Shown here piece after piece: positions 7,865 through 40,755 of a stretch of DNA of 64,000 nt. Origin of the DNA: Woeseiaceae bacterium (GTDB taxonomy: Bacteria; Pseudomonadota; Gammaproteobacteria; Steroidobacterales; Woeseiaceae); contig JANQMR010000039.1 in the NCBI GenBank assembly GCA_028279985.1, forward strand, positions 1,656 to 65,655. Reading direction: 5' to 3'. Under the pieces are notes generated by a model. It was not told where the DNA came from. It was given only the letters and a program-made list of their open reading frames with translations, and did no database searches. How positions within the stretch are numbered: the first letter of the stretch is position 1; the number at the start of each line of letters is the position of its first letter. A program made the position numbers and the translations under genes.

Positions 7865-7910
7865 AGGCGCGAATCCTGTCGCGGCCTTCGGGAACCGCGC
7901 ATTTGACGAA

Positions 7911-7958
7911 CCATTCGAAAAACCATTCGATAAACCACTCGAAAAACCATTCGATGAA
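7911..7958. repeat. 12-nt x4 tandem repeat ending on the mutS start codon
   Basis: ccattcgaaaaa / ccattcgataaa / ccactcgaaaaa / ccattcgatgaa. The ATG at 7954 lies inside the last unit. Confidence 0.9.
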
Positions 7959-10545: not shown

Positions 10546-10554
10546 CCGCTTCGA

Positions 10555-11208: not shown

Positions 11209-11528
11209 TTCCGGGTACCTGACTCTCCGGGTGGGGGCTTTGTTCCTGGTGGCAGATCTGTGGCGGGTGGAGGCTCGGTTCCCGGTGGAGGCTCTGTGCC
11301 GGGAGGGGGCTGCGTCCCTGGCGGAGGTTCTGTCCCTGGTGGAAACACCGTCCCCGGAGGGGGCTCCGTTCCGGGCGGAGGCTCTGTCCCTGGTGGTGGT
11401 TCCGTCCCCGGTGGAAACTCTGTTCCTGGCGGAAACTCTGTTCCTGGTGGAGGCTCCGTTCCGGGCGGGGGCTCGGTCCCCGGAGGGGGTTCAGTGCCCG
11501 GTGGAAACTCCGATCTCGACGAGGCCAT
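11205..11528 (-). CDS. Hypothetical proline-rich hexapeptide-repeat protein (about 15 x PPGTEP)
   Basis: ATG at 11528 lies 19 nt after the aspS stop, and the TGA overlaps the GTG of the downstream hydrolase. The body is an 18-nt repeat whose variation sits almost only at every third base. No signal peptide. The reading strand is inferred from context only. Confidence 0.45.
   Translation of the reverse strand: MASSRSEFPPGTEPPPGTEPPPGTEPPPGTEFPPGTEFPPGTEPPPGTEPPPGTEPPPGTVFPPGTEPPPGTQPPPGTEPPPGTEPPPATDLPPGTKPPPGESGTRK
11230..11517. repeat. 18-nt x about 16 tandem repeat (ggt gga ggc tcN gtN ccN on the plus strand)
   Basis: Sixteen contiguous 18-mers. Differences between units are concentrated at positions 3, 6, 9, 12, 15 and 18. 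Confidence 0.95.
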
Positions 11529-11546
11529 TGTCCGGCGTCGCCGGTC

Positions 11547-24023: not shown

Positions 24024-25808
24024 ATGCGCGACCAAATGAACGGCGAAATAAGCGACAATCCATGGATGGAACAGGCGACCGGGGAAAGCTTCGGCAAGCG
24101 CACGATTCGCACCAGCCGCGAGACGCTGTTGCAAATGGCGGTAGACGAGCCCGATCTGAGCTGGCGCGTTCTGAGCACGCTGAACCTGTTCCGGCTGCTG
24201 ATCGCCGCCGGGCTGCTCGGCCTGTTTTTCGTCACCGGCGAGCCTTATGTCTTCGGCGACCGCTACCCGGCCTTGTTCTCGGCGACCGCGGCGGGTTACC
24301 TAGTGTTTGCGGCCCTGTCGGGCGTCGGGCTCAATCAGCGCTGGGTGCCGGCCTACGTCCAGGGTGTCGGGCAGATCCTGGTCGATATCGTCGCGGTTAC
24401 CGTACTGGTACACGCCAGCGGCGGCGTGGGCACCGGCCTGGGCGGGCTTCTATTGGTTTTCGTCGGCGCGGGTAGCCTGGTGCTGCCGATGCAGTATCCG
24501 GCGGCGCTGGGCGCGGTCGCGACCATTGCAATCCTCGGGGAGCAGCTTTTCTCGCAGCTCGGCGGCTACGGCGCGAACTACCCGGCCGCGGGCCTCTTGT
24601 GCGCGATCATATTCACGATGTCGCTGGCCGCCAGGCCGCTGGCCAGGCGCATACAGGCCAGCGAGGCCTTGGCGCTGCAGCGCGGCGTGGATCTCAAGAA
24701 CCTCTCGGAGCTCAACGAATACATCGTTCAGCACCTCCGCGAGAGCATCGTCGTCATCGATCGCGACGATTCGGTCCGGCTCAGCAATGCGTCCGCGGCG
24801 CGACTGCTGGGGATCAACGAGCCGCTGCGCGGTATGCCGGTCTCGGGCCTGTCGGCGCCGCTCGCCGAGTACCTCGGCCGGTGGCGGCACCGGCACGAGC
24901 TCTCGTCGCATCCCGAGTTTACGCTGATCACCGCCGGCAACAACGCGCGTATCACCGCACATCTGGCGCCGCTCGGCAAAGACGGCACGCGGCTGGGACC
25001 GGTGCTGATATTCCTCGAAGACGCGAGCCTGATGAACGCCCGTGTGCAGCAATCCAAGCTCGCCTCGCTCGGCCGGCTGAGCGCCAGCATTGCGCATGAG
25101 ATACGCAATCCGGTGGGCGCGATGAGCCACGCCGCGCAACTGTTGCGAGAGTCGGAGGGCTTGAAAGACGACGATCGACGGCTGACCGACATCATCCAGA
25201 CACACTCGGAGCGGGTCAGCCACATCATCGACAACGTGCTGCAGTTGTCGCGGCGCGAATCGGGCCGTCCGGAGCAGCTCATGCTGAAACCCTGGCTGGA
25301 GGACTTCGCCGTCGAGTTCACCCGCACCTTGGGGCTGCAAGAGGGCGAGCTGACGGTCGCAGACGCCGACGAGGGTATCGAGGTGCGCATGGATCGCAGC
25401 CACCTGCGCCAGGTGCTGTGGAATCTCTGCGACAACGCGGTCAAGTATGCCAGCGAGACCGGCGGTATCCTGGTGGAGCTCGAGGCGGGCCGCCTCGACG
25501 GAGCCGGCCGGCCTTACCTCGAAGTGCGGGACCACGGCCGCGGGATCGAAGACACCACGGCCGAGAAGATCTTCGAGCCGTTTTTTACCGCACAGTCCGG
25601 CGGCACCGGACTGGGGCTTTATATCTCGCGGGAACTTTGCGAATTGAATCGCGCGACCCTTTTGCACCTTGACCGGCCGGGCGGAGGCAGTATCTTTCGT
25701 ATCGTTTTTGCCGATTCCGAACGCTGGGAGGCTCAGGAGGGCGCCGCAGGAACGGCTGGCCGGGGCAACAGCGAGACGGGATCGACCGTGAGCCAGGACC
25801 GAGAATGA
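24024..25808 (+). CDS. pilS: Sensor histidine kinase PilS (start uncertain: 24024, 24066 or 24135)
   Basis: Multi-TM N-terminus, H-box SIAHEIRNP, and an HATPase with DNAVKY...DHGRGI...GGTGLGL. The stop overlaps the pilR start (ATGA). The upstream part of track ORF 23619.. is antisense to sucC. Confidence 0.8.
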
Positions 25809-27109
25809 CCCGCCCTCTTGCCCTCGTCGTCGACGACGAACCCGACATCTGCGAGCTGCTGGCGATGACTCTCGGGCGCATGAATATCGATACCGAGACC
25901 GCAGGCGACGTCGGCGGCGCGAAGGGTCGGCTCGGCGCAACACGTTTCGACGTGTGCCTGACCGACATGCGGCTGCCGGACGGGGACGGCCTGGAGCTCG
26001 TCGAATGGATGCAGTCCCACGCACCGGACGTTCCGGTCGCGGTGATCACGGCGCACGGCAACATCGAGACGGCCGTGCAGGCTTTGAAGCTGGGTGCCTT
26101 CGACTTCCTGTCCAAGCCGCTGGATCTCAACCACCTGCGCAACATCGTCGAGAACGCGCTGAAGCTCGATCGGGGCGGGGACAACAACAAAGCCGGCCTG
26201 CTCGGCGACTCCGCGCCGATGCAGGCGCTTCGCGACATGATCGAACGCGTGGCGCGCTCCCAGGCGCCGGTGCATATCTCGGGCGAGTCGGGCACCGGCA
26301 AGGAGCTCGTAGCGCGGTTGATTCACGAGAGCGGTCCGCGGGCCGAGGGGCCGTTCGTGCCGATCAACTGCGGCGCGATCCCGGCGGAACTGATGGAGAG
26401 TGAGTTTTTCGGGCATCGAAAGGGCAGCTTTACCGGCGCGGTCAGTGACAAACAGGGGCTGGTGCAGGCCGCGGCCGGTGGTAGCTTGTTTCTGGACGAA
26501 ATCGCCGACCTGCCGTTGGCGATGCAGGTGAAACTCCTCAGAGTGATTCAGGAAAAGTCCGTACGTCCGGTGGGCGCCTCGCGCGAAGAGCCGGTCGATG
26601 CGCGGATCTTGTCGGCGACGCACCGGAACTTGTCTGAGATGGTGGCAACCGGCGAGTTCCGAGAAGACTTGTTCTATCGAATCAACGTTATCGAGCTGCG
26701 CGTCCCCGCACTGAGAGATCGCGGGAACGACGTGCTGCTGCTCGCCGAGCACCTACTGAAGAAACTGGGGTCCCGCGCAACGCTGGACGAAGGCGCCCGG
26801 CACGAGCTGCTGAGCTATGCCTTCCCCGGCAACGTCCGGGAGCTCGAAAACACGCTTGAACGAGCAGTGACGCTTTGCTCAAGTGGCACCATTGGCGAGA
26901 CGGATTTGAACTTGAAGTCGAACGAGATCGGCGGCGGCCGAAGCGTTGCCGCCACCGGGGATCTCGGAAGTCGCATCGACGACGTGCAGCGGCAAGCGAT
27001 CGTCGATGCGCTGGAGAAAACTCGCTACAACAAGACAGCGGCTGCGAAGCTGCTGGGCTTGACGTTACGGCAACTTAGATATCGTATCCAGAAGCTAGAG
27101 ATCAAATGA
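25805..27109 (+). CDS. pilR: Sigma-54-dependent response regulator PilR
   Basis: Receiver domain (VVDDE...DMRLPDGDG), AAA+ domain with GESGTGKE and the sigma-54 contact loop GSFTGA, and a C-terminal Fis-type HTH (NKTAAAKLLGLTLRQLRYRI). Confidence 0.9.
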   Translation: MTRPLALVVDDEPDICELLAMTLGRMNIDTETAGDVGGAKGRLGATRFDVCLTDMRLPDGDGLELVEWMQSHAPDVPVAVITAHGNIETAVQALKLGAFDFLSKPLDLNHLRNIVENALKLDRGGDNNKAGLLGDSAPMQALRDMIERVARSQAPVHISGESGTGKELVARLIHESGPRAEGPFVPINCGAIPAELMESEFFGHRKGSFTGAVSDKQGLVQAAAGGSLFLDEIADLPLAMQVKLLRVIQEKSVRPVGASREEPVDARILSATHRNLSEMVATGEFREDLFYRINVIELRVPALRDRGNDVLLLAEHLLKKLGSRATLDEGARHELLSYAFPGNVRELENTLERAVTLCSSGTIGETDLNLKSNEIGGGRSVAATGDLGSRIDDVQRQAIVDALEKTRYNKTAAAKLLGLTLRQLRYRIQKLEIK

Positions 27110-27201: not shown

Positions 27202-29151
27202 GTGCACCACGAGACCGCGCGCGAATCTCTGCTTTTCGGCGCGATCGTCGCGACAATCCTCATGCTCGGGTGGTTCGTCTACGAACCGGCATTGGACAGC
27301 GTCTTTTTGTTCGACGACGAGCCGAATCTCCACCAGCTCGAAGCGGTCACCGATTCCGAGTCGGCGCTCATGTTCACCCTATCGGGGGCGGCTGGCCCTT
27401 TGGGACGACCATTGGCTCTTGCGACATTCTTGCCTCAAGTAGACGCGTGGAATGACGAGAATGCCGCAGCGTTCTTGATTATCAATGTCCTGATACACCT
27501 CTTTAACGGACTGCTCGTTTATCACCTGTTCCTAAGGCTGGCCCGGACTCAAAAGGCAACTAGTCCGAACGATCAGTGGGTCGCAATCGGGGGTATGGCG
27601 TTATGGCTATTCATGCCGCTGCTCGCTTCCTCATCGCTCATGATCGTCCAACGGATGACCACGCTGAGTGGGACATTCATGTTAATCGGTCTCAATGCCT
27701 ACCTAGCTGCTCGATCGCGGATAGGGATGAGTCCCGCTTTGGCACTGACCGGGATGAGCACTGCGCTCGTTGCTGCCACTTCTCTAGCGGTTCTCACGAA
27801 AGAGAACGGTGCACTGTTACCTACGCTAGTGCTCATGCTCGAAGCCACGCTGCTCTCGCAACCTAGCGGCGTTCGCGTCGCGCACTGGCGGGCGTGGCAA
27901 ACGACGTTTCTTGTCGCGCCAACACTAGTGATTTTGCTATTCGTCGCGAGCAAGTTGCAATACGCCGACTTCCTGGTCGAAAGACGTGGCTACGACGGGA
28001 TTGATCGCCTGGTTACGGAGGCGCGAATACTCTTTGAGTATCTCTACAATTCATTTATACCGAACCCTGAGAAACTCGGTCCCTTCCACGACGACCGGAG
28101 GATCAGCGTTACACTCGCCGCTCCATCTACTTTGGTCCCGGTAGCAGGCTGGCTGACAGCAATCAGCCTCGCGCTAATGTTTCGCAGGAGATATCCGGTA
28201 GCTGCTTTCGCGATACTCTGGTATCTCGCGGGACATGCGCTCGAGTCCACGACGCTGCCGCTTTATCTTTACTTCGAGCATCGGAATTACATGCCACTAC
28301 TCGGGCCTGTGTTCGCGGTGGCTAGTCTATGCTGCGCTGTGAATCTTCGGTACCGCAAGATCGCCCGGTTCGCTCTGCCGCTTTACATCATCGTCAACGC
28401 AGGAGTACTGTACAGCGTTACTTCCCTTTGGGGCATGCCGTTGAACGCCGCGGCCTACTGGCACCACAATGCACCGGCGTCAGTCGCCGCGGCGAGTCAC
28501 CTTGCGATTCAGCAGTCCCGATACATGGCGCTGGCGGTAGGAATTCTCACTCTCAGAGAGTTCGCCCTACGAAATCCCGAGCATGCCTACCTGCGCTTGC
28601 CGGAGCTGAGCCTGTCCTGCAAGGTAGCACGGGGTGCAGATCACTCCGAAACCGTACAATACCTCAGTGATACTCTGCCCACGGTGAGATTCAGTCACTC
28701 GGTCGGCTCAATGCTCGATTCACTAATGCTTACGATCGCGACAACCGACTGTAACGGCGTCGACCTCGACGTTGGACGCAAACTGGCAGACACATTGATG
28801 AGCAATCCGCGCTATCGTAAAAGCCCGAGATTCGGCAGTTATTACCACCAGCTTCTGGCGCAGATCGCATGGGATAGCGGCGATCCCGAGGCAGCCACTA
28901 CAAATCTCGAGCAGGCGAGGAACTTGCTATCCACCGATCAGTTGCATCGACAATTCGTCGGAATTCTCGCCGCGCAGAACCGGTTCGACGAAGCCCGAGA
29001 GTATCTCGCTGTTGCTGAAGGTGAGCTTCCGTCGCACTTGCTGCGAAATTATGCCGGACGACTAAGATTGAGAAGCCTCGGAAGACACATCGACACGTTG
29101 GAAGCGCAGGCCGGCGAGCAGGTCCCCAATGCCGGGCGCATGGACCACTGA
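27202..29151 (+). CDS. Polytopic GT-C-fold glycosyltransferase, TMTC/PMT-like, with C-terminal helical-repeat (TPR-like) domain (paralog 1)
   Basis: 649 aa, GTG start. TM1 is followed by FLFDDEPN (DD at 27313-27318). It also has GRPLALATF, NVLIHLFNGLLV, many TM helices, YFEHRNYMPLLG and a soluble helical C-terminus. These motifs match the family signature I recall for TMTC/DUF1736-type GT-C enzymes. Confidence 0.65.
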   Translation: MHHETARESLLFGAIVATILMLGWFVYEPALDSVFLFDDEPNLHQLEAVTDSESALMFTLSGAAGPLGRPLALATFLPQVDAWNDENAAAFLIINVLIHLFNGLLVYHLFLRLARTQKATSPNDQWVAIGGMALWLFMPLLASSSLMIVQRMTTLSGTFMLIGLNAYLAARSRIGMSPALALTGMSTALVAATSLAVLTKENGALLPTLVLMLEATLLSQPSGVRVAHWRAWQTTFLVAPTLVILLFVASKLQYADFLVERRGYDGIDRLVTEARILFEYLYNSFIPNPEKLGPFHDDRRISVTLAAPSTLVPVAGWLTAISLALMFRRRYPVAAFAILWYLAGHALESTTLPLYLYFEHRNYMPLLGPVFAVASLCCAVNLRYRKIARFALPLYIIVNAGVLYSVTSLWGMPLNAAAYWHHNAPASVAAASHLAIQQSRYMALAVGILTLREFALRNPEHAYLRLPELSLSCKVARGADHSETVQYLSDTLPTVRFSHSVGSMLDSLMLTIATTDCNGVDLDVGRKLADTLMSNPRYRKSPRFGSYYHQLLAQIAWDSGDPEAATTNLEQARNLLSTDQLHRQFVGILAAQNRFDEAREYLAVAEGELPSHLLRNYAGRLRLRSLGRHIDTLEAQAGEQVPNAGRMDH

Positions 29152-29170
29152 GGCCAGGAACGATGGTCGG

Positions 29171-31123
29171 ATGATTGCGCAGCGGAAATCCATGGTGACC
29201 GCCCTCACAGTAGGCATCCTGCTGTCGGTAGGCTGGCTCTTGTATCGCCCGGGGACAGGCGGCGTTTTCCTGCTTGACGATTTCGATACGCTTGGCGGAC
29301 TCGCAGTAATCGAGGATCTGGGATCGGCAATCGATTACATCGGATCTTTCAACGAAGGTCCCTTGGGCCGCCCACTCGCAATGGCCAGCTTCGCTCTCCA
29401 GGCTGAGAGCTGGGATGAGGATCCGGCTTCGTTCATCCGAGCCAATACTGCGATTCACTTGTTTAATGGCCTTTTGGTATTCCTTTTCCTTAGCCATTTG
29501 TGCCGGGCACTGCGCTTCGACGATACCGACTCTCGATTCGTTGCGATCGCAGCGACGGCGCTTTGGATAGTCATGCCGCTACTAGCATCGGCGAATCTGT
29601 TGATTGTCCAACGTATGACTACACTGAGTGCGACGTTTGTCCTAACCGGACTGGCTGGTTACCTGAGCCTGCGCCGCAGAATCAAACACAGTACTGATAT
29701 GTCGCTGTTGCTCCTGGGACTGGTTCTGGCATTGACAACCTTGCTTGCTGTGCTCTCCAAGGAAAACGGTGCACTTCTGCCGACACTTGTCCTCGTGTTG
29801 GAGCTCACATTACTTAGTCGGCCAGAGTCCGTACCTACGGTTAAATGGCGATCCTGGATGGCTGTCTTTCTCGTACTGCCGACGGTCGTTATTGCCGTCT
29901 ACCTCGCTTTTAGAATCCCATATAGCGAGTCGGTGCTTGCCAGGCGAGACTTCGATACAGGTGAGAGACTATTGACTCAGGCGCGTGTTCTATGGGAGTA
30001 CCTCTCTCATGCGCTACTTCCGAGACCTACCGAGCTAGGTCCTTTTCACGACGCGTACCCAGTAGCCAGGTCCCTTACCGATCCAGCAACCGCTGCGGCG
30101 GCCTGTAGTTGGGTGCTGCTTGCTGTTGGCGCATTCGTTTGGCGCAGACGTTACCCTGTTGCCGCTTTCGCCGTACTCTGGTATCTCGCTGCTCACTCGA
30201 TCGAATCGACGACCATACCGCTGGAACTCTATTTCGAGCATCGTAATTACGTACCCATTATTGGCCCGTTGTTTGCCCTTTGTGCCGTGGCTGCCCGCGT
30301 CCCGACCGGATACCAATATAGTGCGCGCACTGGCATCCTCGCATACATCTTCGTCAACGCCGGGATACTGTTCAGCGTGACTTCACTATGGGGACAGCCG
30401 ATGGTCGCTGCAGGCAATTGGTATGCAAATGCACCGAATTCTATGCGCGCCGTTTCAAACCTCGCCAATCGCCAAATGCTCGAGATGGGCCCGATGGTCG
30501 GCGCAATAACACTCGGGGATTTCGCGCAAGCTCATCCCAAGCATTCTTACTTGCACATTCCGCAACTGGCGGTAGCATGCAACGCTAGGCCGGACTTGGA
30601 CTACACGGAAGACGTAGAACGTTTGCTAGAAGTACTTCCAAAGACCGGATTCTCATATACAGCAGGTGAGATGCTGGATACTCTGCAATCCGTCATAACC
30701 GACGAACCTTGTAAGGGAGTTGACAGCGAGGTCATCGCCAACCTTGCAGCAGCACTGATGCGGAACCCACGTTATCGAGTAAACCGCGTGTATCGCCAAT
30801 ATCACGAGCAATTGCTGGCAAGACTCGCCTGGGACGACGGCGACGTGGAAAAAGCGATCGAGCACTTGCACAATGCGTTCGAAATATGGCCGCATGCACG
30901 CGTTAACACAATGATGATCACCGCACTAGTGAGTATTGGCAAATTCGAGGAAGCACGAGAGTTTGCTGCAGAAGCAGAGCGGCGCTTGCCGCGACACCCG
31001 CTCAGGCGTCGGATCTCGCGCAGGGAACTCGACGGCCTGAGTGACTATATCGACTCCGCCGAAAGAGACGCTCGAACGAGCGATGAATCGTCAGGTGCCG
31101 GGCTGGCACACAATAATGACTAA
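29171..31123 (+). CDS. Polytopic GT-C-fold glycosyltransferase, TMTC/PMT-like, with C-terminal helical-repeat domain (paralog 2)
   Basis: About 650 aa. ATG at 29171 (AGGAA 10 nt upstream), with an alternative ATG at 29129 that overlaps paralog 1. It carries the same motif set: FLLDDFDT (DD at 29276-29281), GRPLAMASF, NTAIHLFNGLLV and YFEHRNYVPIIG. Long blocks are identical to paralog 1 (VQRMTTLS, KENGALLPTLVL, RRRYPVAAFA). Confidence 0.65.
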   Translation: MIAQRKSMVTALTVGILLSVGWLLYRPGTGGVFLLDDFDTLGGLAVIEDLGSAIDYIGSFNEGPLGRPLAMASFALQAESWDEDPASFIRANTAIHLFNGLLVFLFLSHLCRALRFDDTDSRFVAIAATALWIVMPLLASANLLIVQRMTTLSATFVLTGLAGYLSLRRRIKHSTDMSLLLLGLVLALTTLLAVLSKENGALLPTLVLVLELTLLSRPESVPTVKWRSWMAVFLVLPTVVIAVYLAFRIPYSESVLARRDFDTGERLLTQARVLWEYLSHALLPRPTELGPFHDAYPVARSLTDPATAAAACSWVLLAVGAFVWRRRYPVAAFAVLWYLAAHSIESTTIPLELYFEHRNYVPIIGPLFALCAVAARVPTGYQYSARTGILAYIFVNAGILFSVTSLWGQPMVAAGNWYANAPNSMRAVSNLANRQMLEMGPMVGAITLGDFAQAHPKHSYLHIPQLAVACNARPDLDYTEDVERLLEVLPKTGFSYTAGEMLDTLQSVITDEPCKGVDSEVIANLAAALMRNPRYRVNRVYRQYHEQLLARLAWDDGDVEKAIEHLHNAFEIWPHARVNTMMITALVSIGKFEEAREFAAEAERRLPRHPLRRRISRRELDGLSDYIDSAERDARTSDESSGAGLAHNND

Positions 31124-31141: not shown

Positions 31142-31993
31142 ATGGCGACGCTATCGATAATCATACCGGCCAAGAACGAAGCCATCACAATCGCCGACAT
31201 CGTCGCGCGAGCGCACTCACGATTCGGCGACGCAGAGATCATCGTCGTCAACGATGGATCGGACGACGAGACGGCGCGACTAGCCGCCAACGGAGGCGCG
31301 ACCGTCGTCACTCATCCCGTGTCGTTAGGCAACGGAGCTGCAATAAAGAATGGCGCCAGGGCGGCGACGGGTGACACACTGGTAATGATGGATGCAGACG
31401 GCCAACATCAACCGGAGGAGATCGTTAAACTGCTCCAAAAACTTGACGAAGGATTCGATATGGTAGTCGGTGCACGCGATTCTGGCTCGCACGCCAATGT
31501 CGGCCGCCTAGTCGCCAACGGATTCTATAATCGTTTCGCATCGATGATCAGCGGCCAAACTATACCGGACCTGACATCTGGATTCCGCGCAGTTCGCGCT
31601 GTCCATTTCAACAGGTTTCTGCACCTATTGCCGAACGGCTTTTCGTATCCAACAACAATCACGATGGCCTTCCTACGATCCGGTTTTCCTGTCGGGTTCG
31701 TTCCGATTAGCGCAAAAAAACGGAGAGGAAGAAGTCATATCAGGCCAATTCGAGATGGCCTACGTTTCCTCGCGATTATTTTTAAAGTGGCAACACTATA
31801 TTCACCGTTGAAGATCTTCCTGCCGATCAGCGCCGCGTTCTTCCTGACCGGTATCGGCTACTACGTATACACCTATCTCATGGTCGGTCGGTTTACGAAT
31901 ATGAGCCTCCTCGTTTTGAGTGCTTCCGTGATTGTCTTTCTGATTGGATTGATCTCGGAGCAGATTACCGCTCTTACATTCAGCAAGTCGTGA
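31142..31993 (+). CDS. GT2 polyprenyl-phosphate glycosyltransferase (GtrB/Dpm1/ArnC-like)
   Basis: 283 aa with IIIPAKNE, VVNDGSDDET and the DAD motif (MDADGQH), then two C-terminal TM helices, the architecture typical of lipid-phosphate-sugar synthases. Strong RBS GAGAGGA. Confidence 0.8.
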   Translation: MATLSIIIPAKNEAITIADIVARAHSRFGDAEIIVVNDGSDDETARLAANGGATVVTHPVSLGNGAAIKNGARAATGDTLVMMDADGQHQPEEIVKLLQKLDEGFDMVVGARDSGSHANVGRLVANGFYNRFASMISGQTIPDLTSGFRAVRAVHFNRFLHLLPNGFSYPTTITMAFLRSGFPVGFVPISAKKRRGRSHIRPIRDGLRFLAIIFKVATLYSPLKIFLPISAAFFLTGIGYYVYTYLMVGRFTNMSLLVLSASVIVFLIGLISEQITALTFSKS

Positions 31994-31996
31994 CCG

Positions 31997-32722
31997 ATGC
32001 TCGATCGACTAAGGAAGTTCGCCGCTCGCGTTCGGAAGACGCCGTTACATCCACAATGGTTCGCATTCCTGCATTCGGACAGAGATCTACAAGAAATTTG
32101 CAAGGACCTCTCCGGCATGGTCCTTGACGTCGGAAGTGCGGAAGGTCGTCCTCGTCGTTACCTGTCTGAAAGCGCTACTTACGTCGCTCTCGACTACTAC
32201 GAAACGGCGAGCGAATGGTACTGTACGCGACCCGACGTGTATGGAGACGCGCAAGCGCTGCCCATCGCCAGTGCCTCCATCGACCACGTGCTGCTATTGA
32301 ACGTGCTTGAACACCTTCCCCGACCGGATCTGTGCCTACAGGAACTAAACCGGGTTCTCGAGCACGGCGGTAGCCTGACTATACAGGTCCCGTTTCTGTA
32401 TCCAGTCCACGACGCCCCGCTCGATTTTCATCGCTGGACTCGCTATGGACTGGTACAGGCCGCAGGTCGATCCGGCTTTGAGGTCGTTTTGGAAGGTGCG
32501 ATCGGTCACCCGCTGGAGACTGCCGCATTGAACCTGAACATTGCTATCGCCAAATCCACCCTCAATTGGATCGAAAAAAAGAGCCCTTTGGCGATACTGG
32601 TTGTTGCGGTACCTCCCCTTGTCTTTCTCATAAACTGCCTTGCCTGGGTTGTGGCGGCTGTAAGCCCAGATGATGACATGATGCCTCACGCATACCGAAT
32701 GCGCTGGATCAAGAGCTTCTAA
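31997..32722 (+). CDS. Class I SAM-dependent methyltransferase with C-terminal membrane anchor
   Basis: Motif I VLDVGSAEG and a Methyltransf_11-like core (IDHVLLLNVLEHL...LNRVLEHGGSL), followed by a hydrophobic helix LAILVVAVPPLVFLINCLAWVVAAV. It starts 3 nt after the GT2 stop. Confidence 0.7.
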   Translation: MLDRLRKFAARVRKTPLHPQWFAFLHSDRDLQEICKDLSGMVLDVGSAEGRPRRYLSESATYVALDYYETASEWYCTRPDVYGDAQALPIASASIDHVLLLNVLEHLPRPDLCLQELNRVLEHGGSLTIQVPFLYPVHDAPLDFHRWTRYGLVQAAGRSGFEVVLEGAIGHPLETAALNLNIAIAKSTLNWIEKKSPLAILVVAVPPLVFLINCLAWVVAAVSPDDDMMPHAYRMRWIKSF

Positions 32723-33672
32723 GCCTTCCGGTGCGCGCCCGCGAGCGTTGCAATTGCGACGAAAACAAGGTCGACAATTAGCGACCACAGCCGACTGAAG
32801 ATAGTGAGAACCAGCGCAACCTCTCGCGGCAGGATTACTGACAGCAGCACCAACTGGCTTGCGTCTCTCACGCCGAGCCCGCTGGGAACACATGGGGCAG
32901 CCATACCGATTACACCAGACAGATTGACGGCACCGACGATAAAAATGAGGTCCGCGGCGGATACGGAACCCCATACGGCAAGTGCCATAAAGTAGTACGC
33001 GACCCCAGCCAGCAGGCTACCGATCGCGTAGAGTAACAGAGATCGCAAAGTCGCCTTGGAGTTCGTCGCCAACTCAGCGTAGGCTTCTTGGCCCCGTAGC
33101 ACTTTGTAGGAGAATCTGATCACGCGGTTGAATATCGCCGGTATCAGCAGGATAGCAAACACCAGTCCGGCACTCAGCACGGCCAACCCGATTCGTCCGT
33201 TGAACTGAGAAGTCAGGCGACCATCCAATCCGAGGAGCAAGAGTGAGACTGCTGCAATCGCGACTATCTGCGTGCCAGCCTCAAGGACAGAGGCAACCGT
33301 GAGGCGGCTTTTGGAAATCCCAAGGTCCCGCGCAAGAAGCACGCGACCGGCGATCCAAGGAACAGTACCGGGAATGTAGCGAGCCATCCAGGACCGCGCA
33401 TAGATCGATGCAAGCACGCTAAATGCAGGTATGTCGGTTGCGCCAAGATCCCGCAGAATTCCCCGCCAAATATAGACTCCCCAGTAACGAAATCCCAGAG
33501 AGAAGCAGGCGCCTATGAGTAGCGGCCAGGGATCGAGCCGTAACTCTCGGAGGATTTCATAATCTAGCTCCTGGAGAAACAGCGCAAGGAACACGACAAT
33601 TCCGGACAACAGCGCGGCGCGCAGCCAGAATTCTGTGCTGTGGCGTTTAGTCCTAGTCGAGGAGTCGGCCAA
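32719..33672 (-). CDS. Flippase-like integral membrane protein (LPG-synthase-TM / UPF0104 family)
   Basis: 317 aa with about 8 TM helices. The pattern (FRYWGVYIWRGILRDLG..., SWMARYIPGTVPWIAGRVLLA) resembles the lysylphosphatidylglycerol-synthase TM/flippase-like family. TTG start at 33672 is uncertain. Confidence 0.55.
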   Translation of the reverse strand: MADSSTRTKRHSTEFWLRAALLSGIVVFLALFLQELDYEILRELRLDPWPLLIGACFSLGFRYWGVYIWRGILRDLGATDIPAFSVLASIYARSWMARYIPGTVPWIAGRVLLARDLGISKSRLTVASVLEAGTQIVAIAAVSLLLLGLDGRLTSQFNGRIGLAVLSAGLVFAILLIPAIFNRVIRFSYKVLRGQEAYAELATNSKATLRSLLLYAIGSLLAGVAYYFMALAVWGSVSAADLIFIVGAVNLSGVIGMAAPCVPSGLGVRDASQLVLLSVILPREVALVLTIFSRLWSLIVDLVFVAIATLAGAHRKA

Positions 33673-34849
33673 ACGCGTCGCTCACTAGCTGCCGCTGTTC
33701 ATCGATCCTCGATGCCAACAACATACGTAGTCGTGGCGCCTCTCGAAGCGCCCTGTCGATGGCATCTAGTACAATTTCCTCCGCCTCATCCAGCAGCAGA
33801 TCCTCAATCGGAAAAGCATACTCTTCGAGGCCCAGTTGGTCGAAATAGACCCTGCCTTTGTCGACGTAGAAAAAGCTCAGGCTCGGCGTGCATCCACTAG
33901 TAGCAATGATACTGGAGTGGAGCCTTACGCCAATCATGAGCCTCGCTGCCGCCAATAACGCCCTAAGTAGACGCGGCGAGACGACATCGTCTCGCAAGAC
34001 CTTCAGGTTGATCTGCCGATCCAGTTCACCGGTGATCTGCTCGCAAAAGGATACATCCTCACCCATGTGCATGGGAACCACCAATATGTTGGGTGTGAAC
34101 TCGGCCATTGCCTCGATGGTCATGCTCAGGGCCGCTCTATACCGTTCGTTCCTGGAATCGGGACCCTCTTTAAAAAAGACCTTGCGATATCGGTAAGGCA
34201 GGACTCCACCCGTCGAATAGTGAAACCAGTTTCTTGGCGCGAATGCAATAAAGTCTTCAAGAAACGACTTGGTTATGCCGAGACGATCGAGCACCGCAAG
34301 ATCGTCGGAACTGAAGGGACCTGGCTTCGGTAGAATCGCCGGGTCGTAGGCCGCATCGATTTTGGATGGCTTCACTCCCCAGCTTCTCAACTTCTCGTAC
34401 GATTCGTCGTCGCGAAGTATGAACTTCCGGGTACGATTCACTATGAAAACAATCAATCGCTTGCTGACCGCGGATCCCGTGGGGCCAATGCCTTGGAATA
34501 CGCCGTATATGTTCGGATTAAAGGTGCGCAGCCAGAGAATCTTGAGGCACCAGTACCACAACGTAGCCTTGTTCGTATAGTCCTTGAGATACTCACCTCC
34601 CCCCCAGTACACAACATCGGAGCGTTTCGCCTCGCGACCGAGTCTTATCCAGTCCAACAGGTTGATCGATTGCACGTCGGACCTCAGAAAGTCGATCCCG
34701 AGCCAACGTCGATCTCGCTCGGCTTGCTCTGAAACTCCCGTTATCTCCGCACCGTTGTGCCGACGTCTCACCAGTTCGATGACACCTTCCGCAATCGCAC
34801 GATCGCCACGATTCTTCGCAAGATCACTGTTGATCAGTAGTACCCTCAC
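33653..34849 (-). CDS. Polysaccharide pyruvyl transferase family protein
   Basis: 398 aa. The N-terminal MRVLLINSDLAKNRGDRAI motif and GGGEYL are typical of the PS_pyruv_trans family (CsaB/WcaK-like). The GTG start forms a GTGA overlap with the GT4 stop. Confidence 0.7.
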   Translation of the reverse strand: MRVLLINSDLAKNRGDRAIAEGVIELVRRRHNGAEITGVSEQAERDRRWLGIDFLRSDVQSINLLDWIRLGREAKRSDVVYWGGGEYLKDYTNKATLWYWCLKILWLRTFNPNIYGVFQGIGPTGSAVSKRLIVFIVNRTRKFILRDDESYEKLRSWGVKPSKIDAAYDPAILPKPGPFSSDDLAVLDRLGITKSFLEDFIAFAPRNWFHYSTGGVLPYRYRKVFFKEGPDSRNERYRAALSMTIEAMAEFTPNILVVPMHMGEDVSFCEQITGELDRQINLKVLRDDVVSPRLLRALLAAARLMIGVRLHSSIIATSGCTPSLSFFYVDKGRVYFDQLGLEEYAFPIEDLLLDEAEEIVLDAIDRALREAPRLRMLLASRIDEQRQLVSDAFGRLLD

Positions 34850-36114
34850 CGCCCGCGCACTCCAGCGGCAGACTGCAGCAAATCCAGGTACTTCCGGCTA
34901 ATAGCTGGCCAGTCAAAATCAGCAGCAAGGCGTTTCGCCTCTTCCGCCTCGCGGGCAACGACGGCCGGCTCGGCATTGACATACCGGATGATAGCTGTCG
35001 CTATTGCCGCCGTATCTCTTTCCGGCACAATGGTGCCACAGCGACCATCGAGTATCTCCTGCGCGCCACTGACGTCGGTTGCGACGATCATTTTTCCGAA
35101 CGCAAGAGCTTCCATCAATGCCACAGGCAGACCTTCCGAGTCGCCCATGCTGTCGATGACTGATGGCAACACGAATAGTTCGCTGGCCTGAAAAAGGGCT
35201 TGCTTTGACTCACCGGTAACGTGACCCGTAAAGGTAACGTCACCGGACAACTTGAGACCCATCACTTGGTCCGCGAGCTGCCCCATAAGCTGACCGTCGC
35301 CTGCGATTACCAGCTGTATCTCACGACGAATATCCTCCGCGAGCGTAGAGTATGCATCGATTAGTACGTTGAATCCCTTTTTCTCGACCAGTCGCCCCAG
35401 CGCGAGAATGATTCTGCGAGATGCGTCTATCCCGCAGCCGTGCAAAGCCTCTCTGACGGTATGATCCGGAAGTCTGTCGGCGCCCATACCTGTGCCCATC
35501 GGTAGAATTGTCAGTTTGTGCGCGAATCTTTCTTCCCACTCTTTTTCGTCAAAGAAATCAATCAGTTTTCTAGCTGTTTGATTAGAGACCGCCGTAAAGG
35601 CCGAAGCATGCCGCAGGACGCTCCGAATTAGTCGTTTCGCCAAGGGAATACTCCGTAGTACCGAGACGTCCGAGGCATGTGTGGTAAACACGAAAGGAAT
35701 ACCTGAACGTCTGCTGACACTGTAAGCTATTACAGCTTGCGGCATGAACCAGTGCGCGTAGATGAGCCTTGGGTGAATCTCACGACACAACAAAGCCAGC
35801 GCCCTTCGCTGTGCCAAGAGAAAAAATGGAATCAACAGATACCGCGCCGGCTTCTCCCTGAGCGCTGGGAGAATTCCACGACCGGTCAGTGTTTCGAGTT
35901 TATGTGGCCAAAAATAATGATAACGAACTTCGGTGAATCCTTCGCGACGAATGAGCGACGGTAGAGATCCATCATATGTGTTGTGAGGAACGAGAACGTA
36001 GACGTCGAGCGAGGGGTCTTCTGCGAGCATTGCCGAGACCTGTTCGAAGACAAACGCCGGTACCGGATCGTCGGGTCGAGCGGGAAACGTCGTTGTGGAG
36101 ACAATGATCTTCAT
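34846..36114 (-). CDS. Glycosyltransferase family 4
   Basis: 422 aa with a GT-B fold. The C-terminal EX7E region is SEGLPVALMEALAFGKMIVATDVSG. ATG at 36114. Transcribed divergently from pilA1. Confidence 0.8.
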   Translation of the reverse strand: MKIIVSTTTFPARPDDPVPAFVFEQVSAMLAEDPSLDVYVLVPHNTYDGSLPSLIRREGFTEVRYHYFWPHKLETLTGRGILPALREKPARYLLIPFFLLAQRRALALLCREIHPRLIYAHWFMPQAVIAYSVSRRSGIPFVFTTHASDVSVLRSIPLAKRLIRSVLRHASAFTAVSNQTARKLIDFFDEKEWEERFAHKLTILPMGTGMGADRLPDHTVREALHGCGIDASRRIILALGRLVEKKGFNVLIDAYSTLAEDIRREIQLVIAGDGQLMGQLADQVMGLKLSGDVTFTGHVTGESKQALFQASELFVLPSVIDSMGDSEGLPVALMEALAFGKMIVATDVSGAQEILDGRCGTIVPERDTAAIATAIIRYVNAEPAVVAREAEEAKRLAADFDWPAISRKYLDLLQSAAGVRGR

Positions 36115-36281: not shown

Positions 36282-36297
36282 TGGCACAGCGTTTGCT
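36282..36297 (+). promoter_or_regulatory. Sigma-54 (-24/-12) promoter of pilA1
   Basis: TGGCAC-agcgt-TTGCT is an exact match to the TGGCAC-N5-TTGC(A/T) consensus, 60 nt upstream of the pilA1 ATG. The sigma-54 activator PilR is encoded upstream. Confidence 0.8.
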
Positions 36298-36357: not shown

Positions 36358-36789
36358 ATGAAGAAGCAGCAGGGTTTCACACTCATCGAACTGATGATCG
36401 TCGTTGCGATCATCGGTATTCTGGCCGCGATCGCGATTCCGGCCTATCAGGACTACACGATCCGCGCGCAGGTATCCGAAGGCATCAATCTGTCGGCCGG
36501 CGCCAAAACCGCTGTCACCGAGTATTACCAGGATGTCGGCTCACTACCAGCCGACAACCCGCAAGCCGGTATCGCTTCAGCTGGCGAGATCCTCGGCAGG
36601 TATGTCACCGGTGTGGCAGTCGCAAATGGCGTTATTACAGTAACCTACGGCTCCCAGGCCAACCCGATCATCGCCACCAGACAAGTTGTTCTGAGGCCGG
36701 ACACGACCAACCCGGGCAGCGTAACCTGGCAGTGCGAGACGGCCGGTGGCATGGAGAACAAGCACGTTCCGGCGTCTTGCCGCAACTAG
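36358..36789 (+). CDS. pilA: Type IVa major pilin PilA (paralog 1)
   Basis: MKKQQG/FTLIELMIVVAIIGILAAIAIPAYQDY: short leader, Gly-1/Phe+1/Glu+5. C-terminal disulfide loop C...C (WQCETAGGMENKHVPASC). GGAG RBS. Confidence 0.92.
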   Translation: MKKQQGFTLIELMIVVAIIGILAAIAIPAYQDYTIRAQVSEGINLSAGAKTAVTEYYQDVGSLPADNPQAGIASAGEILGRYVTGVAVANGVITVTYGSQANPIIATRQVVLRPDTTNPGSVTWQCETAGGMENKHVPASCRN

Positions 36790-36826
36790 TACGCACCTGA
36801 ATCAACACTAGTTGCTGAAAGCGGGA

Positions 36827-36860
36827 GGGGCTCCGGCCGCGTCGTTGGAGCCCCTTAGTT
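36827..36860 (+). terminator. Putative intrinsic terminator/attenuator after pilA1
   Basis: GGGGCTCC-N12-GGAGCCCC (8-bp GC stem) followed by TTAGTTCTCC. The weak U-tract makes partial read-through into pilA2 plausible. Confidence 0.45.
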
Positions 36861-37032: not shown

Positions 37033-37527
37033 ATGCGAAATGCCGCAAAAGGGTTCACGTTGATCGAACTGATGATCGTCATCGCGATCATCGGTATTCT
37101 TGCGTCCCTCGCCGTCTCCGCCTACCAAACGTATACCGTTCGCGCGCAGATCGCTGAGGGGTTGAACATGGCGGCCGCCGCAAAAACACCCATTGTCGAT
37201 GCTTTCAACGTCAACGGCACACCGGCTGCCGACCGGACCGAAGCCGGCCTGACCCCGCTCGCAACAGATACCCAGGGCAACTATGTGGCTTCGGTCGATG
37301 TCGTGGATGGACGTCTGGACATTGTGTTCGGCAACAACGCGCACTCGGCTATTTTCGGCGACCGTCTTTCGATAACACCCTACACGACACCCGGGGGAAC
37401 CATCGCTTGGCGCTGCGGCGCTGCGGCGCCGCCGAGCGCAACGCCACTGGACGGTGGCGGCGTCACTTCCCAACATCTGGTTCCGACCGTCGAGACCCGC
37501 TATCTCCCCGCCGCCTGCCGGGACTGA
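37033..37527 (+). CDS. Type IVa pilin (paralog 2)
   Basis: MRNAAKG/FTLIELMIVIAIIGILASLAVSAYQTY. 164 aa with a long C-terminal Cys-Cys loop (WRCGAAAPPSATPLDGGGVTSQHLVPTVETRYLPAAC). AGGAG RBS. Confidence 0.88.
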   Translation: MRNAAKGFTLIELMIVIAIIGILASLAVSAYQTYTVRAQIAEGLNMAAAAKTPIVDAFNVNGTPAADRTEAGLTPLATDTQGNYVASVDVVDGRLDIVFGNNAHSAIFGDRLSITPYTTPGGTIAWRCGAAAPPSATPLDGGGVTSQHLVPTVETRYLPAACRD

Positions 37528-37690: not shown

Positions 37691-39409
37691 ATGGCAGCAA
37701 CGGCTTCACAAACCAATCTTGCTGGGCTACCTCGCCGGCTGGTGCAGGACGGCATTATTGCCGAGGACAGGCTCCAGGAAGCCACCGAAGCCGCCCGTAA
37801 GGACAAGCTGCCGCTCGTCGCCTATCTGGTCAACCAGGAACTCGCCGAGGCCCGCGCGATTGCGGTTGCGGCCTCACACGAATTCGGCGTGCCACTACTG
37901 GATCTTGATGCCATCGAGCTCGAAATCGACCTCATCCGTACGGTCGATCAAAAGCTGATCAACAAACACCGGGTGCTACCACTGGTCAAACGCGGCCAGC
38001 GCTTGTTTCTGGGTATCGCCGACCCGACCAACCTGCAGGCCATCGACGAGATCAAGTTCCAGACCAGCCTCAGGATCGACCCGGTTGTCGTCGAACAGGA
38101 CAAGCTCGAGGAGCGCATCATCAAGGCGATCGAGGCTGTCGATACGAGTATGCCGGGCCTCGAGGACGACGATTTTGACCTCGAGAACCTCGAGGTGGGT
38201 CCAGACGAGGAAGAGACTGAGGACGTTCACCGCGACGATATCGAGGACGCGCCGGTTGTCCGTTTTGTCAACAAAATCCTGCTCGATGCGATCAAACGCG
38301 GCGCATCGGACGTGCATTTCGAGCCCTACGAGAAGTACTTCCGCGTGCGGACACGCCTGGACGGTGTCTTGTCCGAGGTGGCACAACCGCCGGTCGCGCT
38401 TGCGAACAAGGTCTGCGCGCGGCTTAAGGTCATGTCGCGAATGGACATCGCTGAGCGCCGCGTACCACAGGACGGACGCATCAAGATGCGTTTGTCCAAG
38501 AATCGCGCGATCGATTTTCGAGTCAACACCTGTCCGACCTTGTTCGGCGAAAAAATCGTGTTACGTATCCTCGACCCGTCGAGTGCCAAGCTCGGTATCG
38601 ATATGTTGGGTTACGAGGAACATCAAAAAGACCTGTATATGAAACACCTGATGAAGCCCTATGGCATGATTCTGGTGACAGGTCCGACCGGTTCAGGTAA
38701 GACCGTGTCGCTGTACACGGGCCTCAACATCCTGAACACAGTGGATCGCAATATCTCGACAGCCGAGGATCCTGCCGAAATCAACCTGCCCGGCATCAAT
38801 CAGGTCAATGTGAATCCGAAGGTCGGCCTGACGTTCGCGTCTTCACTCAAAGCCTTTCTGCGCCAGGACCCGGACGTGATCATGGTAGGTGAGATTCGCG
38901 ATCTCGAGACGGCCGAGATAGCTATCAAAGCCGCACAGACCGGCCACCTGGTACTTTCCACGCTGCACACCAACGATGCCCCGCGCACTTTGACGCGCAT
39001 GGTGGACATGGGCGTGAAGCCCTATGCGATCGCAACCTCAGTTAGCCTGATCATCGCCCAACGTCTGGCGCGGCGGTTGTGCGACAACTGTAAGGAGGTT
39101 CGAGACGTGCCGCGCGAGGCCTTGGAAAAGGAAGGATTCGACGCCGGTGATCTCGACGACGGTTTGACAGTCTTTGGGCCGAAAGGCTGTAGACAGTGCA
39201 ACGACGGCTACAAAGGCCGGGTCGGCATCTTTCAGGTCATGGAGGTCTCGGAGACGATGGGCCGGATCATCATGGAAGGCGGCAACGCGATGCAGATCGC
39301 CGACCAGGCGGTCGCTGAAGGCGTTATCGATTTGCGCAGGGCTGGTTTGAACAAAGTCAAGGAAGGGGTTACCAGCCTGGAAGAGGTTAACCGGGTTACA
39401 ATCGAATAG
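37691..39409 (+). CDS. pilB: Type IV pilus assembly ATPase PilB
   Basis: 572 aa with an N-terminal GSPII-like domain, Walker A GPTGSGKT, and Asp/His boxes. A CxxC...CxxC-type tetracysteine cluster is present (CDNC...CRQC). Confidence 0.95.
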   Translation: MAATASQTNLAGLPRRLVQDGIIAEDRLQEATEAARKDKLPLVAYLVNQELAEARAIAVAASHEFGVPLLDLDAIELEIDLIRTVDQKLINKHRVLPLVKRGQRLFLGIADPTNLQAIDEIKFQTSLRIDPVVVEQDKLEERIIKAIEAVDTSMPGLEDDDFDLENLEVGPDEEETEDVHRDDIEDAPVVRFVNKILLDAIKRGASDVHFEPYEKYFRVRTRLDGVLSEVAQPPVALANKVCARLKVMSRMDIAERRVPQDGRIKMRLSKNRAIDFRVNTCPTLFGEKIVLRILDPSSAKLGIDMLGYEEHQKDLYMKHLMKPYGMILVTGPTGSGKTVSLYTGLNILNTVDRNISTAEDPAEINLPGINQVNVNPKVGLTFASSLKAFLRQDPDVIMVGEIRDLETAEIAIKAAQTGHLVLSTLHTNDAPRTLTRMVDMGVKPYAIATSVSLIIAQRLARRLCDNCKEVRDVPREALEKEGFDAGDLDDGLTVFGPKGCRQCNDGYKGRVGIFQVMEVSETMGRIIMEGGNAMQIADQAVAEGVIDLRRAGLNKVKEGVTSLEEVNRVTIE

Positions 39410-40656: not shown

Positions 40657-40755
40657 GCATATCACCGTCCCCTGCCCGTTTGCATTACAACGGCGTTCGG
40701 AGGAAACTCCGGACGCCGTTTGCGTTTGAGCCAAAGGAAGTACCGGAACTCCAGC

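Follow-up and report, generated by a model that had tools for sequence, protein, structure and literature searches.

Tandem predicted GT-C-fold membrane glycosyltransferases in a type IV pilin locus of a Woeseiaceae bacterium

The pil locus of a Woeseiaceae bacterium (GenBank assembly GCA_028279985.1, contig JANQMR010000039.1) carries two adjacent genes for similar membrane proteins together with two pilin genes, which raises the question of what the membrane proteins do and whether each of them serves one pilin. Here, we analysed a stretch of 64,000 nucleotides containing this locus, referred to as the window. FAM1 (27202..29151, forward strand) encodes 649 aa from a GTG start and was assigned, from its ORF and fold matches, as a predicted GT-C-fold membrane glycosyltransferase with a TPR domain. 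Its paralogue FAM2, supported by its ORF, BLASTP and a structural model, follows on the same strand and is annotated with 650 aa (29171..31123) in one public assembly and with 664 aa (29129..31123) in another; the start at 29171 is preceded by an AGGA box at a distance of 11 nt and leaves no overlap with FAM1. BLASTP aligned the two proteins with 47% identity over 566 aa (E = 5e-169), indicating that their likeness does not arise by chance. The preliminary description of this DNA had recognised a tandem pair of about 650 aa with long common blocks, and VQRMTTLS, KENGALLPTLVL, RRRYPVAAFA, and YFEHRNY(M/V)P were indeed found in both proteins, as were GRPL..A(T/S)F and N..IHLFNGLLV. The DD codons lie where it had placed them, at 27313-27318 in FAM1 (D38-D39) and 29276-29281 in FAM2. 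It had also described the C-terminal halves as divergent, but per-domain alignment shows that this divergence is not strong: the alignment reaches the end of the proteins, with 38.8% identity in the C-terminal domain versus 48.4% in the membrane domain. FAM1 is 60% identical to its orthologue L087_c1 and FAM2 is 61-64% identical to the orthologues P0002-P0004; the L087 locus keeps the tandem pair with about 60% identity per copy. All family invariants are present in FAM1 and in FAM2. Sequence comparison thus indicates that the pair is old and stably kept, and both copies are probably functional.

The surrounding genes define a pil locus with a glycan island of low GC. The sensor kinase gene pilS (24024..25808, forward strand) was assigned from its ORF, and its syntenic relatives match 6TM_PilS, HisKA, and HATPase_c; its start is uncertain, with candidates between 24024 and 24135. 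The gene for the sigma54-dependent response regulator PilR (25805..27109, forward strand) lies directly 5' of FAM1, and its orthologues in L001, L003, L087, L089, and L092 match Response_reg, Sigma54_activat, and HTH_8. Downstream of FAM2 on the forward strand are a GT2 polyprenyl-phosphate glycosyltransferase gene of the ArnC/DPMS/GtrB/AglJ type (31142..31993; Pfam Glycos_transf_2, 2.6e-27) and a class I methyltransferase gene (31997..32722; Methyltransf_11, 3e-14), which closes the FAM1-FAM2-GT2 gene string. The reverse strand encodes a flippase-like LPG_synthase_TM membrane protein (32719..33672; PF03706, 3.7e-15) and the products of two variable island genes, a polysaccharide pyruvyl transferase (33653..34849; PS_pyruv_trans, 1.5e-19) and a GT4 glycosyltransferase (34846..36114; Glyco_trans_1_4, 1e-31; Glycos_transf_1, 3.5e-30).

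The pilin genes lie 5-6 kb 3' of FAM1 and FAM2 on the same strand, with these five further glycan genes in between. Two pilin paralogues in the same locus had been reported before, and sequence comparison agrees: pilin 1 (36358..36789, 143 aa) is type IVa major-pilin-like (TIGR02532, 3.6e-10; PRK10574, 2.6e-22), and pilin 2 (37033..37527, 164 aa, forward strand) is 39% identical to it; its disulphide loop is longer and Ser/Thr/Pro-rich, and its alpha-beta loop is rich in Thr and Pro. A sigma54-type -24/-12 box, TGGCACAGCGTTTGC, is located at 36282..36296 (forward strand), 62 nt 5' of the start of pilin 1. The pattern by itself occurs in the window no more often than expected (11 matches versus 11 expected), and it is the position rather than the pattern that is suggestive. 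The 13-bp GC-rich hairpin 3' of pilin 1 (36825..36856, forward strand; MFE -30 kcal/mol for an 86-nt stretch, z = -1.9) is likely a terminator or attenuator. The forward-strand ORFs of pilB (37691-39409), pilC (39439-40656), and pilD (40720-41652) follow; they were assigned by synteny, and the syntenic genes in L089 and L092 match T2SSE, T2SSF, and Peptidase_A24, respectively.

The AlphaFold models of FAM2 and FAM1 are confident (pLDDT 86.9 and 84.7), and each contains 11 TM helices followed by C-terminal helical repeats. When the membrane domain was compared with the PDB by Foldseek, the top five matches were Pmt4, STT3A (two entries), ArnT, and PIGU, with probabilities of 0.93-1.00. The best structural match is Pmt4 (9i5k_A; probability 1.00, TM-score 0.51), although the E-values are only about 1e-2. 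Further matches include Pmt1/2, ALG6, and ALG3, also of the GT-C fold, whereas non-GT-C structures do not exceed a probability of 0.18. K+R residues are denser in the predicted cytoplasmic loops (0.11-0.55) than in PL1, PL2, and PL5 (0-0.05), and their density in the DD loop is 0.047. Two cysteines of the C-terminal domain are kept in 91% and 98% of 90 sequences. The charge bias and the conserved cysteines assign a periplasmic location to the TPR domain and to the DD loop, for which the preliminary description had proposed it too. Nearly all invariant residues are on the periplasmic side; in 90 diverse members, D36-D37 is 99% conserved, and it does not vary in A1 and A3. The earlier GT-C reading is therefore upheld by the fold matches and by the invariant DD of periplasmic loop 1. 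The C-terminal repeat domain was identified as TPR by profile comparison with the PDB (1e-31; OGT TPR, 5e-9), and the models are likewise consistent with 11 membrane helices leading into a periplasmic TPR domain.

No Pfam, NCBIfam, or PDB sequence profile matches the membrane domain. We scanned 76 family members (38 close members at E <= 10 and 38 diverse members at E <= 1) and found no match to DUF1736, PMT_2, PMT, or MIR, only TPR families. Wzy_C_2 gave a marginal match (E = 0.028) across the TPR region. Of the TMTC/PMT-like assignment made earlier, the GT-C fold and the C-terminal repeat domain stand, but membership of the TMTC or PMT families does not, since none of the 76 members matched their profiles.

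The FAM family is very large, with approximately 5,500 clusters at 50% identity. Of 49 loci outside Woeseiaceae, about 40 have a type IVa pilin gene immediately 5' of FAM; this arrangement is also seen in Acinetobacter, and the adjacency is conserved across several orders. GT2 is found directly 3' of FAM in most loci, with 54-80% identity between loci. Its closest NCBIfam models are AglJ (1e-39) and PpgS (4e-27), both below the family cut-offs, and it matches ArnC (8e-16), DPMS (1e-12), and GtrB (2e-9) in the PDB. Judging from these matches, GT2 probably makes a lipid-linked sugar donor for FAM1 and FAM2. Methyltransferase copies with 59-61% identity lie 3' of GT2 in L001, L027, and L087, and the LPG_synthase_TM family, whose member in the window is a candidate lipid-sugar flippase, recurs in the islands of L001 and L087. 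The minimal islands of relatives consist of pilR-FAM-GT2-pilin-pilin and nothing else.

The fold, the topology signals, the motif conservation, and the gene linkage to pilins and GT2 are observed here, and from them we infer a donor, an acceptor, and a division of labour between FAM1 and FAM2. On balance, we favour the reading that both are inner-membrane GT-C glycosyltransferases with a periplasm-facing active site, which carry out pilin glycosylation of the TfpW type on a donor pathway of the GtrB/ArnC type. On the cytoplasmic side of the membrane, GT2 would use a nucleotide sugar to load undecaprenyl phosphate with a monosaccharide, and the lipid-linked sugar would be flipped by the LPG_synthase_TM protein, by a housekeeping flippase, or by the transferase itself. 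FAM1 and FAM2 would then move the sugar onto Ser/Thr residues of the type IV pilins from this locus, using the DD/R/KE/EHRNY site for catalysis and the periplasmic TPR domain to hold the protein acceptor. Several observations weigh against this reading: the Foldseek E-values are weak, sequence profiles do not recognise the membrane domain, and in the window FAM1 and FAM2 lie 5 kb away from the pilins, next to pilR. The GT4 and pyruvyl transferases do not fit simple monosaccharide transfer; together with the methyltransferase they vary between strains and probably diversify the glycan. Because a common donor synthase is present, the work of FAM1 and FAM2 is most likely divided on the acceptor side: they might use different sites, separate a priming from an extending step, or form a hetero-oligomer.

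How this division might run was weighed against the family-wide data. The preliminary description had proposed one transferase per pilin, in which each pilin paralogue would be glycosylated by its own enzyme, FAM1 or FAM2, and divergent TPR domains would confer the specificity. The window itself contains two transferases and two pilins, and across the family two adjacent pilins occur in 9/12 two-copy loci versus 10/39 single-copy loci (Fisher p = 0.005), or in 4/6 versus 4/28 when counted by lineage (p = 0.018); however, these comparisons involve few loci, which are not independent of one another phylogenetically. Non-sister copies gave rise to the 2+2 arrangement in at least four lineages, and evolution is faster in the C-terminal domain (mean p-distance 0.80) than in the membrane domain (0.63). 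However, single-copy relatives of either type keep two pilins, which speaks against pairing as a rule: one transferase accompanies two pilins in L089 (FAM2 type), L092 (FAM1-like), and L001 and L003 (third clade). Within the lineage of the window, the pilin number is constant at two while the transferase copy number varies. Three loci of the family have two copies with one pilin. The partial correlation with pilin divergence is no higher for the C-terminal domain (0.17) than for the membrane domain (0.20), and the C-terminal domains of FAM1 and FAM2 are still 39% identical. We therefore regard a strict division by pilin paralogue as unlikely, while the enrichment of two pilins in two-copy loci leaves room for pilin specialisation in this genome. 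It is conceivable instead, and we advance it tentatively, that FAM1 and FAM2 act on the same pilins in different roles, as a Pmt1-Pmt2-like hetero-oligomer, as priming and extending enzymes, or at different sites. A single GT2 donor synthase for two transferases and the old, stably kept pair are in keeping with this. The PMTs, which are the closest fold matches, are dimeric (9i5k is a Pmt4 homodimer and 6p25 a Pmt1-Pmt2 complex, as deposited), and TfpW self-interacts and has been suggested to act in priming as well as in polymerisation (bioRxiv 10.1101/2020.04.19.049825). Against it, the single-copy relatives indicate that one enzyme can suffice.

The acceptor could also be a glycan or lipid (O-antigen, EPS, or lipid A), as for GtrC or ArnT, with the island merely situated within the pil locus, or one copy could serve non-pilin proteins. 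GT4, pyruvyl transferase, and methyltransferase genes are typical of polysaccharide loci, the island has a low GC content, and ArnT is among the fold matches. Moreover, a sister Woeseiaceae clade with FAM and GT2 has no pilin gene within 10 kb, which implies that not every member of the family has to act on pilins. Nevertheless, the pilin-FAM adjacency kept across several orders, the minimal islands that hold FAM, GT2, and pilins only, and a TPR domain typical of GT-C enzymes with protein acceptors (TMTC and TfpW) make such an acceptor improbable for the pair in the window.

The favoured pilin glycosylation by FAM1 and FAM2 can be placed among known systems. We compared FAM by eye with the TMTC family of eukaryotic protein O-mannosyltransferases (GT105), using its definition and motifs M1-M7 (Table 4 of PMC7801869), and FAM motifs were found in the same order and loops as M1, M2, M4, and M7, in line with the earlier likening to TMTC. 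Like TMTC1-4, FAM has 11 TM helices, a cytoplasmic N-terminus, and a C-terminal TPR domain, luminal in TMTC and periplasmic in FAM. Both have a DD right after TM1, and the R-P about 30 residues past DD, the K-E (KE(NG)) in loop 3, and the E-x-R-x-Y (E-H-R-N-Y) before TM10 of FAM resemble SHKSYRP, KE(T/Q)xxT, and ERxxY of TMTC. They further share a long helical TM7-TM8 loop and a partner GT2 of the DPM1/DPMS type. In contrast, M3 (RxD), M5 (DW), and M6 (PxxP) have no clear counterpart in FAM, the 76 FAM members match neither DUF1736 nor PMT_2 of Pfam, and in this bacterial host the carrier would be undecaprenyl and the acceptors would be pilins.

With the PMTs (Pmt1/2/4 and mycobacterial Pmt; GT39), which work as dimers, FAM shares an acidic pair in loop 1; by analogy, a GT2-made polyprenyl-phosphate monosaccharide donor and Ser/Thr O-glycosylation outside the cytoplasm may be common features as well. 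FAM differs in having TPR repeats in place of a MIR domain, no PMT Pfam match, and a sequence identity of only about 13%. As in ArnC/ArnT and GtrA/GtrB/GtrC, the gene of a probable GT2 polyprenyl-phosphate sugar synthase adjoins that of a GT-C transferase predicted to act in the periplasm, but those systems modify lipid A or O-antigen and have neither a TPR domain nor linkage to pilin genes. TfpO/PilO and PglL are also multi-TM enzymes linked to pilins, which they glycosylate in the periplasm, and their genes are often found beside pilA; they belong, however, to the unrelated Wzy_C family and transfer preassembled Und-PP-oligosaccharides. An identity of FAM as a PglL/TfpO O-oligosaccharyltransferase was rejected, as the profile scans gave no Wzy_C match.

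Judged by published description rather than by sequence, the closest characterised bacterial analogue is TfpW, the GT-C-type pilin D-arabinofuranosyltransferase of P. aeruginosa Pa5196/PA7, which the preliminary description had not mentioned; an enzyme of this type would thus be already known. TfpW was shown to glycosylate pilin, and homologues were reported in Acinetobacter and Cellvibrionales (bioRxiv 10.1101/2020.04.19.049825). Unlike TfpW, FAM1 and FAM2 are duplicated and adjoin pilR instead of following pilA, and the conserved GT2 beside FAM points to another donor pathway; DprE1, DprE2, PRPP-transferase, and GtrA of the D-arabinofuranose donor pathway were not found between pilR and the pilins. 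The TfpW motif YX6PFX7P of periplasmic loop 4 is represented in FAM1 (Y280-P287) and FAM2 (Y277-P284) by Y-X6-P only, followed by N or R rather than F and with no P after X7; its Y is invariant across the FAM family. [quoted passage not shown] The gene lies directly 3' of pilA in most members of the FAM family, which, like the TfpW homologues, is present in Acinetobacter and Cellvibrionales.

The type IV pilus locus of the window begins with sucCD (minus strand) and pilS, followed by pilR (25805-27109) and two large ORFs, FAM1 (27202-29151) and FAM2 (to 31123), which encode adjacent paralogous membrane proteins. These are followed by the glycosyltransferase gene GT2 (31142-31993), a methyltransferase gene (31997-32722), and three minus-strand genes spanning 32719-36114 (LPG_synthase_TM, pyruvyl transferase and GT4). 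The two type IVa pilin genes, pilin 1 (36358-36789) and pilin 2 (37033-37527), come next, and then pilB, pilC, pilD and coaE. FAM2 has two candidate starts, at 29129 and 29171, and public gene calls differ accordingly (664 aa in the NCBI record, 650 aa in the Logan assembly). The start at 29171 is preferred because an AGGA box lies 11 nt upstream and overlap with FAM1 is avoided; the 664-aa form overlaps the FAM1 end by 23 nt. The 27-38 kb island, pilins included, has a GC content of 53-59%, compared with 63-67% in the flanks, and its gene content differs in all relatives examined (L001, L003, L087, L089, L091 and L092), which suggests that the island is hypervariable and possibly exchanged. 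In this lineage, the FAM module adjoins pilR at the far end of the variable glycan island. Two single-copy relatives carry minimal islands of the order pilR-FAM-GT2-pilin-pilin-pilB (L089, 10001-14354; L092, 10001-14408), which identifies FAM and GT2 as the core module; these islands would be the simplest natural systems for testing.

FAM1 and FAM2 share 47% identity over 566 aa (E = 5e-169). The motifs and DD codon coordinates quoted in the preliminary description are all correct in both sequences. The C-terminal halves diverge less than that description implied (38.8% identity, against 48.4% for the membrane domain). Across 76 family members, the membrane domain gave no sequence match in Pfam, NCBIfam or the PDB (the last searched by phmmer and hmmsearch with close and broad family profiles), and profiles detected only the C-terminal TPR repeats. 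The broad profile matched TPR proteins at 1e-31 overall and the OGT TPR at 5e-9. AlphaFold models were obtained for full-length FAM2 (pLDDT 86.9) and the FAM1 membrane domain (84.7). Both show 11 TM helices, with TM1 and TM7 each followed by a helical periplasmic loop, and the C-terminal helical-repeat domain was modelled as well. Since TPR proteins filled the Foldseek results for the full-length protein, a model of the membrane domain alone was needed. Its top matches were all GT-C enzymes, namely Pmt4 (probability 1.00, TM 0.51), STT3A, ArnT and PIGU, followed by Pmt1/Pmt2, ALG6 and ALG3, and then by unrelated transporters at probability ≤0.18. Because these matches have weak E-values of about 1e-2, the GT-C assignment applies at the level of fold only. 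Fold, topology and motifs together support the GT-C/TMTC-like reading proposed earlier, TMTC being the eukaryotic protein O-mannosyltransferases.

Helix boundaries from the model were mapped onto an alignment of 90 family sequences. The frequency of K+R per residue is 0.11-0.55 in predicted cytoplasmic segments and 0-0.05 in periplasmic loops 1, 2 and 5. Two cysteines of the C-terminal domain are kept in 91% and 98% of the 90 sequences, a pattern that fits a periplasmic disulphide. Nearly all invariant residues lie at the predicted periplasmic face (D36, D37, R67, N92, H96, W132, P136, Q147, R148, K197, E198, R266, Y277, E345 and E356-H-R-N-Y360). The charge bias, the cysteines and the placement of the invariants thus argue against a cytoplasmic DD motif and agree with the extracytoplasmic loop originally proposed. 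For TfpW, the Pseudomonas aeruginosa pilin glycosyltransferase, reporter fusions showed both loop 1 and the C-terminal domain to be periplasmic (bioRxiv 10.1101/2020.04.19.049825).

Clustered at 50% identity, the family numbers 5,520 clusters with a cut-off of E ≤ 1e-30 and 11,933 with E ≤ 1e-10; the weakest hits may owe their match to the TPR domain. Neither Pfam nor NCBIfam has a model for the family, whose members are currently annotated only as "tetratricopeptide repeat protein". The best 150 representative matches were all close family members and contained no bridge to known families, and a literature search found no published account of the family beyond TfpW. Carriers include Woeseiaceae (closest to the window), Competibacteraceae, Methylococcales, Thiotrichaceae, Wenzhouxiangella, Dyella, Microbulbifer, Alcanivorax, Hahella, Acinetobacter, Marinobacter and some Betaproteobacteria. 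Typical gammaproteobacterial pilin-FAM-GT2 loci also occur in three MAGs assigned to Candidatus Saccharibacteria, Pseudolabrys and Dichelobacter nodosus (L026, L085 and L071), which probably reflects misbinning or mislabelling.

In about 40 of 49 non-Woeseiaceae loci with enough flank, the gene immediately upstream of FAM, in the same orientation, encodes a type IVa pilin. The same holds in Acinetobacter wuhouensis, and Acinetobacter orthologues are arranged pilA-FAM-GT2. GT2 is directly downstream of FAM in most loci. Across several orders (L001-L092), GT2 is 54-80% identical to that of the window, whereas FAM is 30-50% identical; this far better conservation suggests one common lipid-linked sugar family-wide. 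GT2 matches the polyprenyl-phosphate glycosyltransferases ArnC (8e-16), Pyrococcus DPMS (1e-12) and GtrB (2e-9), as well as the NCBIfam models AglJ and PpgS, both under the model cut-offs. A sister Woeseiaceae clade (L017, L021 and L056, at ~7000-12800 in each) carries FAM and GT2 directly after oadA/oadB-like oxaloacetate-decarboxylase genes; there, no pilin gene occurs within 10 kb. In several distant loci whose ORFs were read by eye (L028, L063 and L069), genes for an asparagine-synthase-like amidotransferase (N-terminus MCGIAF...), a GT4 and a ~300-aa membrane protein lie downstream of FAM, replacing or accompanying GT2; this set may represent an alternative glycan pathway. ORF inspection around FAM loci without GT2 revealed no obvious D-Araf-type genes. 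A tie between the second transferase and the GT4 plus LPG_synthase_TM genes was also considered and rejected, as the association is absent across loci.

Judged from its sequences, the tandem FAM1-FAM2 pair is old. The first and second copies of the two-copy relative L087 are 60% and 61% identical to FAM1 and FAM2, respectively, compared with only 47% between FAM1 and FAM2, and every family invariant is retained in both window proteins. It had been proposed that each transferase serves one pilin. As a rule this is not supported in the window's lineage, where pilins are constant at two and the transferase number varies: L089 (FAM2 type), L092 (FAM1-like), L001 and L003 each combine one transferase with two pilins. 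Across the wider family, two adjacent pilins occur in 9 of 12 two-copy loci against 10 of 39 single-copy loci (p = 0.005), and in 4 of 6 against 4 of 28 in rough lineage counts (p = 0.018), both comparisons resting on small counts and ignoring kinship. In Competibacteraceae and Dyella, the two copies of a pair are not sisters, so the state of two enzymes and two pilins arose repeatedly. In a mirror-tree analysis of 25 loci with a single pilin and a single transferase, pilin divergence was coupled to the C-terminal domain no more closely than to the membrane domain (partial r 0.17, versus 0.20 for the membrane domain). We consider it unlikely, for this genome, that FAM1 and FAM2 are specialised on separate pilins. 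Because there is a single GT2 for two transferases, the two enzymes probably divide the work at the acceptor, whether by site, as a priming and an extending enzyme, or within a Pmt1-Pmt2-like hetero-oligomer. TfpW has been shown to self-interact (bioRxiv 10.1101/2020.04.19.049825).

The two pilins differ in their putative control signals. A sigma54-type box, TGGCACAGCGTTTGC, lies at 36282-36296, 62 nt upstream of pilin 1, and a 13-bp GC-rich hairpin follows the pilin 1 stop codon (36825-36856); a box of exactly this form is absent for pilin 2. With this arrangement, pilin 1 looks like a PilR/sigma54-driven major pilin, and read-through into pilin 2 looks attenuated. In pilin 2, the alpha-beta loop is rich in Thr/Pro and the long disulphide loop in Ser/Thr/Pro, whereas such sites are few in pilin 1, a contrast that is no more than suggestive.

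The most economical reading of FAM1, FAM2 and GT2 is a three-step periplasmic glycosylation. GT2 would produce an undecaprenyl-phosphate sugar, the lipid-linked sugar would be flipped, and the GT-C enzyme would move it onto pilin Ser/Thr while the TPR domain engages the protein. We infer the donor sugar, the flippase and the acceptor sites alike. More broadly, we put forward as a long shot that FAM and GT2 form the core of a very widespread, unmodelled bacterial protein O-glycosylation system (TMTC/PMT-like, using an undecaprenyl-phosphate monosaccharide, mainly on type IV pilins), in which recurrent two-enzyme/two-pilin loci reflect enzyme-acceptor specialisation evolved several times.

Pilin glycosylation alters pilus surface chemistry. 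In Pseudomonas it guards against pilus-specific phages (bioRxiv 10.1101/150227; PMC11841053). If the three-step glycosylation model is right, a TfpW-like enzyme with a GtrB/ArnC-like donor synthase would be among the commonest pilin-modifying modules in Gammaproteobacteria. Annotation would improve once the family is defined. FAM and GT2 would provide a compact two-gene system for how GT-C enzymes choose protein acceptors, and the natural variation between loci in the number of enzymes (one or two) and of pilins (one or two) would amount to experiments on acceptor specificity. We rate the interest as moderate, mainly because the module is so widespread yet unannotated and its variable enzyme and pilin counts offer a test bed for specificity.

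Among known systems, a PglL/TfpO-type enzyme was rejected for FAM because the Wzy_C domain is absent. FAM shares with TMTC the plan of 11 TM helices plus TPR and, compared by eye, appears to have counterparts at the positions of DD, RP, KE and ERxxY (EHRNY in FAM) (PMC7801869), but the TMTC-defining Pfam profiles are unmatched, so it is TMTC-like and not TMTC. By published description, FAM resembles TfpW in size, topology, DDX loop and TPR domain and, in most non-Woeseiaceae loci, in gene position; it differs in that the YX6PFX7P motif is half present in FAM1 and FAM2, and that GT2 replaces the D-Araf pathway of TfpW at the locus. TfpW is the best functional analogue of FAM and possibly a member of the same family. 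The FAM-GT2 scheme parallels ArnC/ArnT, GtrB/GtrC, Ppm1/PMT and DPM1/TMTC and, among bacterial pilin systems, TfpW.
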